The translations under genes were made by a program, and so were the position numbers. A DNA stretch of 63,612 bases, filler included, from Licmophora abbreviata (Eukaryota), in NCBI GenBank assembly GCA_900291995.1. It is 9 parts of 9 records of this genome, joined end to end, with 100 filler letters (N's around TTAATTAATTAA, not from the genome) between each part and the next. Parts side by side here need not be neighbours in the genome. Positions count along the whole stretch, not along the records: positions 40,368 to 43,573 come from OLMU01000260.1; positions 43,674 to 45,597 come from OLMU01000261.1; positions 45,698 to 47,948 come from OLMU01000262.1; 6 more parts are not named here. One strand, given 5' to 3'. Shown piece by piece: positions 38,738 to 46,515 of the stretch. The stretch's first letter is position 1. Every line of letters begins with the position of its first letter. The notes beneath the pieces are model-generated. The model saw only the letters and a list, made by a program, of their open reading frames with translations. It searched no databases and was not told the origin of the DNA.

Positions 38738-39859
38738 TCATCTCAAAGGCCCATTCAACTCCGTATCCGCGTCGGGCGCACCAACTTGCTGTGCCAGCGT
38801 TTGCAACATGCCTTGCATTATTTCTTGTGTTTCTTGCATTCGTTCTATTCGAGTCATCAGTCCATTGATTCGTAACCGTGCATTCGCCAACTGTTCTTCC
38901 GGTGTCTCCTTACGGTCGACGTCCTCCTTTCTCGACTCGGCATCAGCAACTGCTACTGCATCACATACGACGGCAATGATCAAATTGAAGACGATAAAAC
39001 CGGAAATGGCAATGAAAGCGACAAAGGGCAACCAAGCCCAGCTCTCAAACGACATGACTTCGCGGGCCACATCCGCCCACTCGAGCGTCATCATTTCCAT
39101 GCAAGAAAAAAGTGAGGCGTCGAGCGATTTGAAGTTGCTGTTCTCCAGTGGCAAGTCCTTGAAAAGCGATGTGAACAAAACAGCAAATATATAAAAGACC
39201 AGTCCGAGCAGGAACATAATCGCCGCCATTCGTGGCAGCACTGCCCCGATCGCAACGACCAAGTCTCGCAAGACCTTGATTCTCGTAATGAGTCGGAATC
39301 CTCGAAAGATTCGAAAGGCGCGAATAACCTGAATGCTGTCGAAGCCCCAGCTTAAAAAGATAATGACAAAATCAAAGACCAGCCATCCGTCCAGAAAGAG
39401 TCGCCAGCCTCGATATCCAAACTGAAGTGCTAGTTCGACTGTGAAGATACTCAAGAATACAATGTCGGTCGTCTCGAACGCTTTACTGACGTCCGGATTG
39501 TCCTTGACGAAACTAAAAGTCGCCAGTCCCATCATAATGGCGTTGATGACAATCAACGCGATGATACCAAGCTGTACATAGACGTGATTGATGACGTCGC
39601 CACATCGTTGCCGAAATCGGGTAAACCAGTATTTGGAATCGAGATTCGCGAGTCTTCGAGATTGTGCCATTGTCAGTTTGGTCTGCGCCGGGTCGTCGCT
39701 GCTGCCCATTTCTGAATGCGCCTCATAGTACTCTGACTCAGTGCCACTTTTGGCCGATACGCGGCTGGGGGCTCTATGGAAGGCATGCTGCTGCTGATGG
39801 CAGGGAACTGTTTGGTGATGGTGTTGATGTCCGTCGTCGTCATCCTCGGTCGGTGACAT
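38738..39859 (-). CDS. Single-domain voltage-gated cation channel (EukCatA, BacNav-like)
   Basis: One 6-TM repeat; S4 IRAFRIFRGFRLITRIK; filter MTLEWAD; S6 FNLIIAVVCDAV; C-terminal coiled coil. Confidence 0.88.
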   Translation of the reverse strand: MSPTEDDDDGHQHHHQTVPCHQQQHAFHRAPSRVSAKSGTESEYYEAHSEMGSSDDPAQTKLTMAQSRRLANLDSKYWFTRFRQRCGDVINHVYVQLGIIALIVINAIMMGLATFSFVKDNPDVSKAFETTDIVFLSIFTVELALQFGYRGWRLFLDGWLVFDFVIIFLSWGFDSIQVIRAFRIFRGFRLITRIKVLRDLVVAIGAVLPRMAAIMFLLGLVFYIFAVLFTSLFKDLPLENSNFKSLDASLFSCMEMMTLEWADVAREVMSFESWAWLPFVAFIAISGFIVFNLIIAVVCDAVAVADAESRKEDVDRKETPEEQLANARLRINGLMTRIERMQETQEIMQGMLQTLAQQVGAPDADTELNGPLR

Positions 39860-40367
39860 GGTGCTACAGTTATAGAAAAGACTCAATGAAGTAAAGCTAA
39901 GAAAGCGAAGCAAACACAAACAGCAGGAAGGGCAACAACAATTGAGAAGGACCGAATATACAGGACAGTGGTAGGCGATCGTGTCACCCCGTTCTTTCCC
40001 GTCGCCTCCGCTGCGCATCACTGTTTTCCCGCCACTCTCGCGTCGCCAAGTTTGTATCCACTGATGGCAATACCAATCCATCGTAGAAATCTACATCATG
40101 TGACAGCGTACAGCCTTTGGGGTCGCACTTTCTTTATTCGAACTCACCGTTTCGTCGCCTTTTGCAATCAATCCTCTTGACGGCTACACGAGGCGCACGC
40201 TGCAAGGTTTGAATGAATGAATCCATCAATCCTCGAGAGTGCTTCAGAGCAAGCATGTAAGCATGTTNNNNNNNNNNNNNNNNNNNNNNNNNNNNNNNNN
40301 NNNNNNNNNNNTTAATTAATTAANNNNNNNNNNNNNNNNNNNNNNNNNNNNNNNNNNNNNNNNNNNN

Positions 40368-40906
40368 CTCTCACCGTCTTGCACAAGCTGGCAACAAGAC
40401 TCTGCCGCAGACCGCACCTCGGTGGTAGCATCTGTCTGTGCGCACCACAGGCCACCCCAAACTTCTCCGCCCCGCTGCTCCATGACCATGCTTGTCCAGG
40501 CCTTCGGTAGCCGTTCGTAGGCAGCGTGGAGACATTGAATAGAAGCAGCCCGAACACTTGAGAAATCGTCGTATCCCAGCTTGGAGTGGTAGATGAACAA
40601 CAAATGTGACAGCGCAGCAACCTGATCTTTCTTCGAAACATCCTGCTTTTCAAAGTATTCCCGCAATTCTCCCAGAGCCCGTGCTTTCGTAATTCCATCT
40701 CGTTTCTGTGCTATACGACGAAAAATCAAATGCAGACGCTGCTCCGATCCAGTATACACGGGAGACCACTGCTGTTGCAGCGGTTTTGATGGTTGTGCAA
40801 AACCAACAACGCTTGGCGTCTCCGTCGGACTGGCGGCGAAGGCACCAAACCCGACAAACTCGCCACTTCCCTTTTCCAATCGAGTTTTTCGCTTATCGCG
40901 CGGCAT
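40368..40906 (-). CDS. LTN1: N-terminal fragment of E3 ligase listerin (Ltn1), truncated by gap
   Basis: FVGFGAF, IFRRIAQKRDGITKARALGEL, YHSKLGYDDFSSVRAAS, WCAQTD..EVRSAA. Confidence 0.8.
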
Positions 40907-41406
40907 CGTTAAGGCACTACCGTATTGTGGAGACTGGAGCGTTCCTTCTGTGTCCCTCCAACAGTGACTGATCAAATATCGTGGTGGTGACGTTGTGATG
41001 GCGGCTAGACCTACTGGTACTCGTCGAACTTCGAACTTGAGAGTACTATACCAGGCACTTTCAACCTCTTTCGAGGCCTGCGGCGCGCCAAAAAAGGAGC
41101 AGCGGTCAGAATCTCGAAAGTCTCGAAAGCAAGATTCCTAACTCCTTTCATATCCGGGTGCTTCCAGGAGTCTTGTTCGATCCGGCGTCGTCCGGCGCCC
41201 ACCCCTCTTCTCGATCTCTCGTCGCCGGCGACACTGCATACCGCCATGGTAACACATCGGCCGTACTCTCACGACAACGACGACTTCCTTGCCGCACTAA
41301 CGAACGAGATTAAGAGAAAAATACTTCTACAGACTGAGGTAGAATAATTTTGGACGAGGATTGAAAGAGAACAGGACGTATCCGCATCACTTTTCAGCAG
41401 ACAGTC

Positions 41407-44400
41407 ATGTCCGATTTGAGAAGCGGCAGCGGCGAGAAACTCCCCCCGCTTCATGAATCTGACGACGAAGACTTGGAGGACTTCGACGAGCTGCAGCTAC
41501 CGTCGAGAGAAGACAGGCCCGCTCGACCGAAACGCGTCAGTTTTACCAGTTTGTTGAGAAAGAGTCGGAACACTCTAGCACGCCCCTCTCAAAGTCGACG
41601 TCAGTTGTCCGATCCCACCGACACTCGGGCCGCCGCCAGAAAGTCCGGACTACGCGCCACTTTGAGCCACTACTTCTCTTCGGTGAGACAGCAAAACAGT
41701 GACGAGTTCGGGAGTGGATATGTTGATTCAGAAGGTGAGACTCGGTCTACACGAGGCGCACGCAACTTCCGGAGGCGCGGACCGAGGAGTCATGATCTGT
41801 CTTCACAGGCTTCTTCTCGCCAATCTGCTGATACAATGGCTTCACGCGCGACGTATTTACGTTATCGTGTTGGAGATCCCGTATTGGTCAATTGCGACCA
41901 ATCGAAGTGGGCAAACCTAGTGAATCGATACGGGTATCCGCCGGAACAGGGAATGACACCGGAAGAGCAGCGCGGTCCCTACATGTACGTCCTTGCGACG
42001 GTAACGAAGGTGCATTTCGACGAAGATGTAGAATATTACACTGTGAATCGATACGATACAGGTGGTGACCAACGCGCAAACGTCGAGTGGATGGAACCCA
42101 TACGGACAGCGAGAGGCGAAGCTGCAGCGCTGCGTGCTGCCTCGGCAAGCTCAAACGCCAACAAAACAGATGAGGAATTGGCAGAATCGCTCCTTAGTTC
42201 TGAATCTACGAATGGCTTCTGCGTAAATATTGTTCTTTTTCCGATTCTATGGATCTATGGCGTTCTGTATACATGGGTGTGGAAACCGGTCTCGTGGCTT
42301 GGAAAGCAAGTGATCGCCGCTGTTCGCTCCCAGGCAAAGTTGTTTTTGCACGGTGTTCCACCGTATGCACTTTCCTTCCGGATCACGATGGTCAATCTAT
42401 TGGTTTTGAGCAGCATATGGTACATGTTTATCGATCAAGTGAGGCTGGCTTTCTTTCATCCAAGCTCAGACTACAGCCTTGCGGTTGTATCCTTGTAAGT
42501 CTTTGGGTGACGCACACATATCCATTAAATGACCACCTGACGAACCATTTCTCACACCATCTTGCCTCTGCTCCTTCACATAGCGTTTTCTGGATTGTGT
42601 TGGTACTCGAGCTTATGTTTGAGGTATTTATTCGCCCTGAAGGCTACAGCTATCTCATCACGTCAGACAAGGCGTACTCCCCGATCACTGCGAGATTCAT
42701 CAATGCCTTTCACCTTTTCTTTGAAAGCATATCACTGGCCGCCTTTGTGCCAGAATTCGTTTGCTTAATGACGTCAACGTATTCTTGTAGCGACAGACCA
42801 GCGCTGTCCTTCTTCAACGCGTCGCTATTGGCCGTGCTTGGTCCGAGTCGTGCCAATGTGTTCTACGGACGAGCTTTCATGGCGCTGGTTCGACTGCGGG
42901 TATTCGGCCTCGTGCGACATTGGAAGAAGATGTGGTTGACAAACACCTACGTGACGATGAAGTGGAAGTCCCGGCCAGGGACGGCGAAAGAGATGCTGAT
43001 GCGTCACATTTCTCTATCGCGGCAGACCTCCGTGCCAAACAATGTGGCCGAGGAACAACAGGAGAAGGACTGGTCGCTAGTGCATGCATCAAACATTGGC
43101 ACAGCGTTGATGGTGACGAACTCGCACCGTGCTCTGCTGCTTATGTGGTTCATCATGGGAATTTACCCTTTGCTTTATGCGGTGAACATTAGCCAAATCA
43201 ATCCCGTTGCGACTGAAATGGTTGACCAGCTCGCGGCACTAAATCTTCGACTTACGAATGCCTCAGATCCGGAGGAATGCAATTTCTTTATTGCGTCGAT
43301 CATTTCGTGGCTGGTCGGTGTGACAACTGGAAACAAGGCGGGATTTGGAGGCGATGGGCTAGACATTTTTGTTCTCTACCTCGAGCTTTCGCCATTACGT
43401 TGTGGCCTTACAAGCGTCGCGACACGCGATCTGTGCGATGATATCGACTACACAAATCTAACTAAAGAAGAGCTGCAGCTGGTGAACGGCATGTGCGAAG
43501 TCTGGAACGCCACGTACCCCGGCATCACAGATGAGGCGCTGGCAGAGCTTGTCGATTGCAGGGTTGGATCCGTNNNNNNNNNNNNNNNNNNNNNNNNNNN
43601 NNNNNNNNNNNNNNNNNTTAATTAATTAANNNNNNNNNNNNNNNNNNNNNNNNNNNNNNNNNNNNNNNNNNNNGTCGATTGCAGGGTTGGATCCGTCTAC
43701 ACCGTTTCCTCCGAGTCGACCATTGGAAACTACACTGACTCAAATGGCACCCTAGTCCTGGACGCCGAGTTTTCAGTTGTCGCCAAATACGACGAATCAA
43801 TTGTTGTTCGCCCAGCGTAAGTCTACGGGCACGACTGTGATGCTCACATTCGTGTATTCCGTCTCACTCTGCTTCTTTCTCGTGTCTTTCGTCTCGCAGC
43901 TCTGCATTGTCCTTCTTCTTGCAGATTTGTGTGCTGATATGTGTACTGGGCGGCTTGTCTCTACTGAGAAGTGATGCAGCGACGCTTGTCCTTAGTCCTC
44001 TACGAAGAATGCTCAAGATTGTTGCGCGTTGTAAGTCAAAGACTGTCGTAGCAAACCTCGCATTGTGCTCGCGCAATCCACAGCTTGACTCACAACCAAC
44101 CTTACCTTTCTTGCTGTCGTAGACTCCAAGAACCCTCTAGCCCCTACGAACGCTACCAAGAATGAGGACACCGACTCGGACGATGACAGCGATGTTGCTG
44201 GTGCGACATCAACCAGCAAACTTGGTAACTTCGAGACGGAACAACTTATCAACGCCATCACCAAGATTGCCGATTTACTGCGAAAGTGCTGGGGCGTCGC
44301 AGGCGCCGACATTATCTCTACTAACCTTGACACCAAGGAAGGTACACTGACCGAGGTTTTCAACCCCACTGTGCCGGGGAAAAGTGTTTACGCCTTGTTT

Positions 44401-45782
44401 GGATTTGCCGCAATTCAGCAATTCGACCACATCCTTCGTAATCTCGGAGACGAAGTGATGATTCTCATCAACGACGTGGCGGCTGTCCTGCACACGGAAG
44501 TGTTCCGATGGGGATTCGGCGACAGCGGTCAGTGCAACAAGAATCTCGGTAGTGCCTTCCTTATGGTTTATCGGATTGGACTTGTCAAGGAGGTATTTGA
44601 GAAGCTTGAACAAGCCACGGATGTCGTCTTTTCGAACCCCTCCAAGGCAAAGTCTGACGCTAGACAACGACGAGCCGACCAGAACAAGAAGCTCCCACCG
44701 TCCGACCAAAAGTCGCGTCTGCAAATGGCCCGCACGGTTGCCGCGGAACGGCGTCAACGCCGAGCGCACCATGCACGCAAGGGTGCCAACGCCATGAGCC
44801 TGTCGTTGCAGTCACTGCCCGGCATCTCCGCCTTTACCGATCGGGCCGTCATCGGAATGCTCAAGAGCTTCGCTGGTATTTATCGGGATAACAAGTTGAC
44901 GATTTGGAAGAAAGACTTTCGTCTCGGCGCAGGCGTCGGTGCCTTTTCCATCAACCTCATCTTTGGCATGGACGCAGGGTGGGCGCAGGAGGGTGCCGTC
45001 GGTAGTTCGTTCAAAATTGATGCGACGTATCTCTCACCGCATGTCAACATGGCATCGCGTATGATGAGTGCGTGCAAACAGTACGGCGTGAGTATACTTT
45101 TGAGTCAGGCAGTCGAAGAGCTCATGTCCGAAACGGCTCGCAGCAAGTTACGGCATTTGGATACCATCACGGTAAAGGGAAGTACGTTGAAGCAGAGGAT
45201 CTACACGTACGATGCTCGACACGAGGGTGTCGATTTCTTTCTCTTTGATCGTTCCGAAGAACAGGCCGACATTGATTCCGAGCGGTACTCACCGGCGATT
45301 TGGAATACCGATCAAGATTTGAAGGCCATGCGAGAGCATGTGACGGAAGACTTTGAAGAAGCGTTCAGCAAGGGACGTGATGCGTACCTAGCCGGTGACT
45401 GGGAAACGGCTGTGAAGCATTTGGAACGGGCCGACGAAATCATGGTGGAGAATGTACAAGAGATGGGATATCTAGAGGCCGACTTGGGAGACGAAGACGC
45501 TGGGATACATGCTGGTGATCTAGGGGCAGTGGAAGTGGAACGAAGTGAAAAAGAAGACGGCCCGACGCGATGTCTGCTCAACTATATTGCCAAGGAGNNN
45601 NNNNNNNNNNNNNNNNNNNNNNNNNNNNNNNNNNNNNNNNNTTAATTAATTAANNNNNNNNNNNNNNNNNNNNNNNNNNNNNNNNNNNNNNNNNNNNGCG
45701 ATGTCTGCTCAACTATATTGCCAAGGAGGGTGGTCGTGCTCCCGACTCTTGGAAGGGCTATCGTCCTCTTCTCAACAAGTGA
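41407..45782 (+). CDS. Membrane class III adenylyl cyclase-like protein with channel-like TM module (introns 42495-42583, 43817-43899, 44031-44122; spans two closable gaps)
   Basis: FETEQLINAITKIADLLRKCWGVAGADII, PGKSVYALFGF, NKNLGSAFL, GAVGSSFKIDATYLSPHVNMASRM, DTITVKGS, APDSWKGYRPL, as in alveolate/stramenopile membrane ACs. Confidence 0.85.
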
Positions 45783-45866
45783 GTCAAGTCTACTAATAGT
45801 TACTATTGTCGTCATAATTAGTTGCATAGATTATAAATATAGGTCTAATACTCGCACTTGGTATGT

Positions 45867-46515
45867 CTATGATGATTCCTGAGCAGCGGGCGGTTCGTTG
45901 GCACCAAACTCCCAGTCTCTTCGGCAAATAGGACACGTATTTCGGCTGGCATTGATCCATTTCGAGACTGAGCGCGGCCAACAAGACAAGGAAAAACGCA
46001 ACGTGTCAGCACGTTCGAAAATCATGAAGGCAACAAGACAGCAACCCGAATGGCAACGCACGCTACGACAAAGTACAAAGTAGATTTTCTGCTTGCTCAA
46101 GACAAGATCTTCCGCCAAGATTCCACAGACACTCACCACATTGTAAGTGTAAAGCATGTCCACACTTGCCCCAGACCAACGGACTTTCGTCTCCAGGATA
46201 CTTGACTCCCGGAGCAGCTCCTTCAAAGGCCGATTGACAAATAGCACACACATCATCTTCGTCGCCTGCATTCCACGTCCACTTGGCGACTCCGTGAAAG
46301 CGCTTGATTCTCACTCGTAGTGTACGACGACACTGCGACGAGGATGTAGCAGTAGCAGTAGCAGCAGCAACGCGATGAGGGACAATGGGAGTGTCGCTGG
46401 GGCGTTTTCGAGACGAATCAGATGCAACGGATGGTACCTCCGATAATGACATTTCGGCTACTAGAGTGCTGTCAATGGATCGTTTGCGATGCGGCGATGA
46501 GGAAGAGGACGCCAT
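45867..46515 (-). CDS. ANAPC11: Anaphase-promoting complex subunit 11, RING-H2 (exons 46515-46137, 45967-45867)
   Basis: VRIKRFHGVAKWTW..CAICQSAFEG..PGDESPLVWGKCGHALHLQCVSKWI..CPICRRDWEF. Confidence 0.9.

Follow-up and report, generated by a model that had tools for sequence, protein, structure and literature searches.

A voltage-sensor-fused adenylyl cyclase of the diatom Licmophora abbreviata as the probable C2-like half of a two-gene enzyme

Introduction

The ACalpha family comprises adenylyl cyclases (ACs) in which a voltage-sensor-like membrane module is fused to a class III cyclase domain. In the members from Paramecium, Plasmodium, Toxoplasma, and Eimeria, in Chlamydomonas CYA18, and in Phytophthora PPTG_13136 and PPTG_13761, segments S1-S4, a fifth transmembrane helix (TM5), a loop, TM6, a HAMP-like linker, a class IIIb cyclase, and a TPR-like tail follow each other in this order (PMC11922314, PMC3383692, PMC9561859, PMC12223298; papers are cited here for the passages that bear on the point made). 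A GXG motif after TM6 is mentioned for the family (PMC3283738). Plasmodium ACalpha, termed class IIIB (PMC3383692), possesses all canonical catalytic residues and is likely a homodimer (PMC5746546, PMC3383692). According to the passages on distribution in PMC12223298, the family is reported only from flagellated or ciliated organisms. Here, we analyzed a stretch of 63,612 nucleotides from Licmophora abbreviata (GCA_900291995.1; "the window"), joined from nine parts, which contains an ACalpha-family gene at positions 41407-45783 on the plus strand. Its predicted product of 1285 amino acids, encoded with three predicted introns, probably represents one half of a cyclase whose other half is encoded by a second gene.

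The division of a cyclase active site over two halves is a textbook principle, exemplified by the C1 and C2 domains of mammalian transmembrane ACs (tmACs) and by soluble guanylyl cyclase (sGC), whose alpha and beta subunits stem from two paralogous genes and hold a half-site each. sGC is a heterodimer, and the beta homodimer is inactive (PMC3591389). Class III active sites lie at the dimer interface, with the metal-binding Asp residues coming from one subunit and the base-binding and transition-state residues from the other, and many heterodimeric cyclases require pairing because each subunit lacks residues (PMC8815786).

Results

The cyclase domain of the Licmophora protein (44377-45216; plus strand, as for all features of this gene) is of class IIIb and contains an insert of approximately 80 amino acids (44581-44817); fold and similarity to PF00211 (E 1.6e-4) place it among the class III nucleotidyl cyclases. 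A sequence-only reading of the locus had described a Cys- and sequon-rich loop, a transmembrane (TM) helix, and a class III cyclase without both metal-binding Asp residues. Hydropathy, the lists of Cys residues and sequons, and the Pfam match agree with this order, and the loss of both Asp residues was borne out. The first is replaced by Ala873 and the P-loop Arg, two positions further on, by Gln875 (44410-44418); the second is replaced by Ser920 (44551-44553), and the adenine-binding Lys916 of the same segment (44539-44553) is kept. Also retained are the adenine-selecting Thr1078 and the transition-state residues Asn1085 (45046) and Arg1089 (45058), all within 45025-45060, and the phosphate-binding Lys1128 of the VKG motif (45175-45177). 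These motifs all lie in one exon (44123-45597). Measured against a self-sufficient homodimeric AC, the protein has the Asn, the Arg, and the phosphate-binding Lys and lacks the two metal Asp residues.

The losses are shared by the close homologs, here called A-type and represented by 99 of 120 matches listed (165 were found), with 6-7 truncated rows. None of the 99 carries a metal Asp at either site, so that the substitutions, whose conservation the earlier reading had proposed to check, are conserved as losses; the replacing residues vary, with nine different residues at the first site and seven at the second. Where covered, the transition-state pair, correctly noted beforehand as retained, is invariant (Asn in 93/93 and Arg in 92/92 rows), as is the VKG Lys (93/93). 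The P-loop Arg remains in just 3 of 98 proteins. The two Asp columns have entropies of 1.8 and 2.3 bits, compared with 0-0.3 for the Thr, Asn, Arg, and Lys columns. In only 1 of 98 rows does an acid stand at, or directly beside, one of the two Asp sites. Further motif changes specific to the A-type are GFG to CWG, GLH to GMD, and RLE to RMM.

The residue seven positions before the catalytic Asn acts as adenine selector, and Thr is its class IIIb state. Counting back from this Asn leads to the Asp of YDIWG in AC5 C2, to the Thr of KMDHT in bPAC, and to Thr1078 here. The selector is thus the Thr of KIDAT and not its Asp, as had been proposed together with the Lys that is indeed kept. This Thr, present in 93 of 93 covering A-type rows and aligning to that of bPAC, conforms with Lys916 to the class IIIb pattern of Lys plus Thr/Ser. 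By sequence and fold, the closest solved structures are those of the bacterial class IIIb enzymes bPAC, OaPAC, CyaB, and CyaC, which share the Thr selector. Unlike the A-type, these enzymes form symmetric homodimers, have complete residue sets, and are soluble or regulated by light.

Searching the Licmophora genome with the cyclase exon yielded three loci, namely, C261 (this gene), a 71% identical A-type paralog that shares its residue losses and N-terminal domain (G000:C290, L002, L022), and a distant paralog on C4229. The latter protein (L021:1861-3282, minus strand), which we assign to a B-type, contains FCDIR, NKNIGDAF, and KIDAT; VERAEF replaces VNMASR, and VKG is absent. The paralog keeping the Asp pair that the sequence-only reading had called for is therefore encoded in the same genome (G000:C4229) and is the mirror image of the A-type in lacking Asn, Arg, and VKG Lys, as expected of systems like tmAC C1/C2 or sGC. 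Own-genome searches with the cyclase domain, PF00211, and a full-residue relative revealed no family member besides these three loci and thus none with the full residue set; as only the best candidates were scored and the assembly consists of 7734 contigs, the family count is a lower bound. C1181 and C2641 (L011, L018) each encode a class III cyclase of bacterial type; the two resemble each other, have distinct motifs, and belong to a family separate from ACalpha. The gene upstream of the C4229 paralog is, we presume, BRCA2-like.

The B-type pattern is uniform among 120 matches listed of 343 found: both Asp residues, the P-loop Arg, the Lys, and the Thr are present in 120/120, Asn in none (Glu in 118), and Arg in none (Phe in 97, Tyr in 17), and the VKG Lys is left in 11, with an entropy of 3.1 bits at this position. 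Profile-profile alignment of the A-type with the B-type over 782 columns confirmed the register. Among the matches listed, five of the eight named organisms with a B-type protein also have an A-type protein: Seminavis robusta, Nitzschia sp. Nitz4, N. inconspicua, Fistulifera solaris, and the Bacillariaceae metagenome-assembled genome SGILL. Several pennate genomes hold two A and two B paralogs each among these matches. An IQ-like motif, KIQRAWR, was found in 118 of the 120 B-type proteins compared with weak matches in 4 of the 99 A-type proteins, with a Pfam IQ score below the cutoff in one protein; in the Licmophora B-type protein, it is situated between a four-Arg S4 and TM5.

The A-type and B-type match mammalian C2 and C1, respectively, residue for residue. 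AC5 C1 reads FADIEG, KILGD, and DVTLANHME, and AC5 C2 reads FASIAN, KTIGST, TVNVASR, and VKGKG. The likeness of the A-type to a C2 half-domain had been recognized in the sequence-only reading and extends, with the B-type, to the complementary half. This correspondence makes the A-type protein likely to be one subunit of an obligate heterodimer rather than a dead enzyme. Judging from these sequences, it is probably the C2-like member of a membrane AC that is built as an obligate heterodimer from the products of two genes, with the C4229 paralog as the predicted C1-like partner; homodimers of A or of B would be inactive on their own. Of the functions considered earlier, a complementary partner is hence supported at the level of sequence, and a nucleotide sensor or dominant regulator has become less likely, given that the C2-side residues are invariant, that the metal side is free to vary, and that no full-residue member for it to regulate was found among the genome candidates scored.

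A search of 50% representatives of the wider family returned 150 proteins, of which 140 contained both core blocks and 47 the full canonical set, Eimeria being a named full-residue member. It also uncovered a second, less eroded pair. A2 proteins, named from Skeletonema, Minutocellus, Proboscia, an ochromonad, and Florenciella, keep the first Asp, carry Asn for the second in 20/21, and retain Asn and Arg; B2 proteins, named from two Chaetoceros species and two chrysophytes, have both Asp residues in 67/67, Asn in 60, Arg in 0/67, and the VKG Lys in none. Both occur in centric diatoms and in chrysophytes. In quick, midpoint-rooted tree searches without bootstrap, A and A2 fell on one side of a branch with a Shimodaira-Hasegawa-like approximate likelihood ratio (SH-aLRT) support of 99 and B and B2 likewise with 89 (209 rows); with the trait columns removed (101 rows), the values were 99 and 94. 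Triparma groups with A. Owing to the nature of these trees, we only infer the order of events, with a split into halves in ochrophytes first and a further pair, eroded more strongly, arising later among diatoms and their relatives. In a query-biased sample of 448 related proteins with complete residue states, 217 combine both Asp residues with loss of Arg, 172 keep Arg but not both Asp residues, 52 are full, 5 lack Asn only, and 2 lack both halves. Paralogs in further protists (P0504, P0349, P0353, P0425) include those of Toxoplasma, Besnoitia, and Alphamonas, with both Asp residues kept and Asn and VKG Lys absent, and that of Aphanomyces, with both Asp residues absent and Asn and Arg kept; judged by these residues, they are possibly independent half-enzymes.

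Ahead of the cyclase, the A-type protein shows the ACalpha arrangement of S1-S4, TM5, TM6, and linker. The pre-cyclase part aligns (E 4e-28) to a profile built from 48 full-residue members, which 97 of 98 A-type proteins match, and relatives match Ion_trans only at positions 4-117 of 241, i.e., the S1-S4 part. The multi-TM module claimed previously (42376-42935) is thus voltage-sensor-like, but the charge pattern of its S4 (42864-42935), read before as a basic helix, is eroded: in place of the ACalpha pattern of a basic residue at each third position, 80 of 87 A-type proteins have a longest such run before the cyclase of 2, and the other 7 have one of 3. The longest run is 3-6 in 45 B-type proteins and at least 5 in 33/33 A2, 45/46 B2, and 36/38 full-residue proteins. 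Hydropathy, Cys and sequon lists, and alignment delimit TM5, the Cys- and sequon-rich loop, predicted to be extracellular or luminal, and TM6 (43128-43969). The helical linker that follows (43970-44295) is HAMP-like, a label used in PMC11922314, and ends in CWG (44287-44295) in place of the family GFG; all 98 A-type proteins have CWG and thereby deviate from GXG, versus GFG in B, A2, B2, and full-residue proteins. Toward the C terminus, model helices and weak TPR-like Pfam scores point to a TPR-like hairpin (45346-45447), as in the domain order of alveolate ACalpha (PMC11922314).

The N-terminal 148 amino acids (41407-41850) are of low complexity by sequence, have no Pfam match, and are probably disordered. 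They are followed by a small conserved domain (41860-42105), a putative SH3/Tudor-like barrel of five beta strands according to the sequence-only reading, which is defined by alignment and occurs in 72 of the 82 A-type proteins whose N terminus is long and in 0/39 A2, 0/120 B, 0/56 B2, and 0/48 full-residue proteins; it has no Pfam match, and its best Atlas score, 0.90, is to unnamed clusters.

The gene model comprises exons at 41407-42494, 42584-43816, 43900-44030, and 44123-45783. Once three GT-AG introns and two assembly gaps, at 43574-43673 in the second exon and 45598-45697 in the fourth, are removed, the frame of 1285 amino acids is open. Scaffold gaps in the window are N runs around TTAATTAATTAA; two of eight are false, with exactly overlapping flanks (23 and 31 nucleotides, respectively), and both are those in the cyclase gene. 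The splicing is a prediction, yet it is backed by the unbroken alignment of the product to family profiles over every exon junction. The best named homologs among the matches listed are all diatom proteins.

Several other genes surround the cyclase gene. A single-domain Ion_trans channel gene (38738-39856, minus strand; Pfam E 1.6e-35; pore motif TLEWAD), which we take to be akin to the diatom single-domain Na+/Ca2+ channels (EukCatA), lies upstream at a distance of about 1.5 kb of assembled sequence plus one gap. The head-to-head neighbor (40370-40957, minus strand) has a weak HEAT match only and presumably resembles the N terminus of the E3 ligase listerin; it is cut off by the gap at 40268-40367, so that the greater part of a listerin gene would either lie concealed there or be absent. 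Directly downstream, on the opposite strand, is an APC11-like RING-H2 gene (46066-46260, minus strand; Pfam zf-ANAPC11 E 9e-14).

Discussion

In the proposed heterodimer, the B partner would supply the two metal Asp residues and the P-loop to a shared site, and the A subunit would contribute the adenine pocket and the transition-state residues. Each A-B pair would then possess a single active site beside a degenerate one, like tmAC C1/C2 and sGC alpha/beta. Contacts between the subunits may be made by their TM6 helices, HAMP-like linkers, and cyclase domains. Regulation, the least supported step, might depend less on voltage, given the eroded S4 of the A-type, and more on Ca2+/calmodulin via the IQ motif of B or on the TM5-TM6 loop; bicarbonate is a further candidate regulator.

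Four other explanations deserve consideration. The A-type might be a true pseudo-cyclase that binds ATP or cyclic AMP (cAMP) without metal and serves as sensor, scaffold, or inhibitor, forming no working site with B. The adenine-binding Lys and Thr present in both A and B would fit such a role, as would the acquisition of an N-terminal domain of its own and of the motifs CWG, GMD, and RMM; but the invariance of Arg1089, Asn1085, and Lys1128, the exact mirror loss in B, and the lack of a full-residue target for it among the genome candidates scored render this quite unlikely. Invoking other acidic residues as metal ligands in an A-type enzyme active alone is highly improbable. Conserved acids that full-residue members lack do exist, e.g., Asp in GMDAG (93 in 100) and Glu in HxEV, but acids within one position of the Asp sites are confined to the single row of 98 mentioned above, the P-loop Arg is gone as well, and the fold is that of a standard class III cyclase.

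The B-type, in turn, might be a weakly active homodimer using a variant mechanism with its conserved Glu and Phe, and A an optional modulating subunit. Some bacterial class III cyclases, e.g., Rv1900c, tolerate loss of the Asn, and B has kept both Asp residues, P-loop Arg, Lys, and Thr throughout, along with the Glu (118) and Phe/Tyr (114). We nevertheless hold this to be very unlikely, considering that Arg is missing in all listed B and B2 proteins, that the VKG loop has decayed, and that mammalian C1, with the same pattern, requires C2 (PMC8815786). Finally, the gene might be an artifact of sequencing or assembly, or a pseudogene in decay. One might point to the two gaps inside it and to no reads covering the catalytic codons, but this explanation is already refuted by the conservation of the losses, which recur in all 99 listed homologs and in the second genome paralog; the frame of the gene itself is open over 1285 codons.

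Some observations count against an obligate A-B heterodimer. Lys and Thr, unneeded for a pure C1 role, are kept in all 120 listed B-type proteins, although AC5 C1 likewise retains the equivalent Lys and Asp, and the conservation of the Glu and Phe replacements in B suggests a further role. For three of the eight organisms named among the B matches listed (120 of 343), no protein appears among the A matches listed (120 of 165), and no species name is shared by the named A2 and B2 matches. The trees are quick and bootstrap free, with B on a long branch, and the fragmented assembly of 7734 contigs could hide a full-residue member. In addition, heterodimers of other cyclase families need not track residue loss (PMC8815786).

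Compared with other ACalpha proteins, of which Eimeria P0334 shares 40% identity with the diatom A-type over two core blocks, the diatom site is divided over two genes, the S4 charges and GFG are lost, and an N-terminal domain is added. Pennate diatoms have no flagella. The occurrence of homologs in them sets our data apart from the distribution passages of PMC12223298. Mammalian tmACs (AC5, AC8) show the same division of residues, A resembling C2 and B resembling C1, with one active and one degenerate site predicted. However, their halves reside in one chain, of class IIIa with an Asp adenine selector and a 2 x 6 TM anchor, whereas the diatom pair is encoded by two genes, of class IIIb with Thr, and has a voltage-sensor-derived anchor. 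As the trees put both A and B inside the ACalpha family, the split appears to be independent of mammalian C1/C2. Unlike the diatom pair, sGC is soluble, heme regulated, and GTP specific and has unrelated regulatory domains.

A C1/C2-type division within the ACalpha family is what is new here, its principle being known from tmAC and sGC. We found no description of a split site in voltage-sensor-fused ACs in the passages of largely open-access papers searched, including those of PMC13466520 and PMC3727952. ACalpha-family paralogs are treated as separate enzymes in the parts of PMC11922314 and PMC12223298 that concern them (the word "dimer" is absent from the main text of the latter), and a channel heteromultimer has been suggested, in the relevant passage, without catalytic complementation (PMC10587447).

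In a broader scenario, ochrophytes split a voltage-sensor-fused cyclase into obligate halves, and diatoms duplicated and rewired the pair. Voltage sensing would have decayed, a calmodulin-binding IQ motif would have been added to the C1-like half and a new N-terminal domain to the C2-like one, and the degenerate site, with Lys and Thr kept, an invariant Glu, and Phe/Tyr, would have become an allosteric nucleotide or bicarbonate pocket; several A and B paralogs would then provide a combinatorial, flagellum-independent, Ca2+- or CO2-responsive source of cAMP. Half-enzyme paralogs in oomycetes and apicomplexans would mean that the family split in this way more than once. Taken jointly, we regard these steps as speculative and rather unlikely to hold in full.

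cAMP is reported to vary with CO2 in a diatom (PMC3727952, citing Harada 2006), and the A/B pair, with its IQ motif and class IIIb Thr, is a concrete candidate source. Two annotated, seemingly defective cyclases become one testable enzyme. In the pair, the C1/C2 division of labor would have arisen independently, with an intermediate stage in view, A2 keeping one Asp and B2 the Asn. ACalpha-family paralogs of further protists may likewise be enzyme subunits and not redundant copies.

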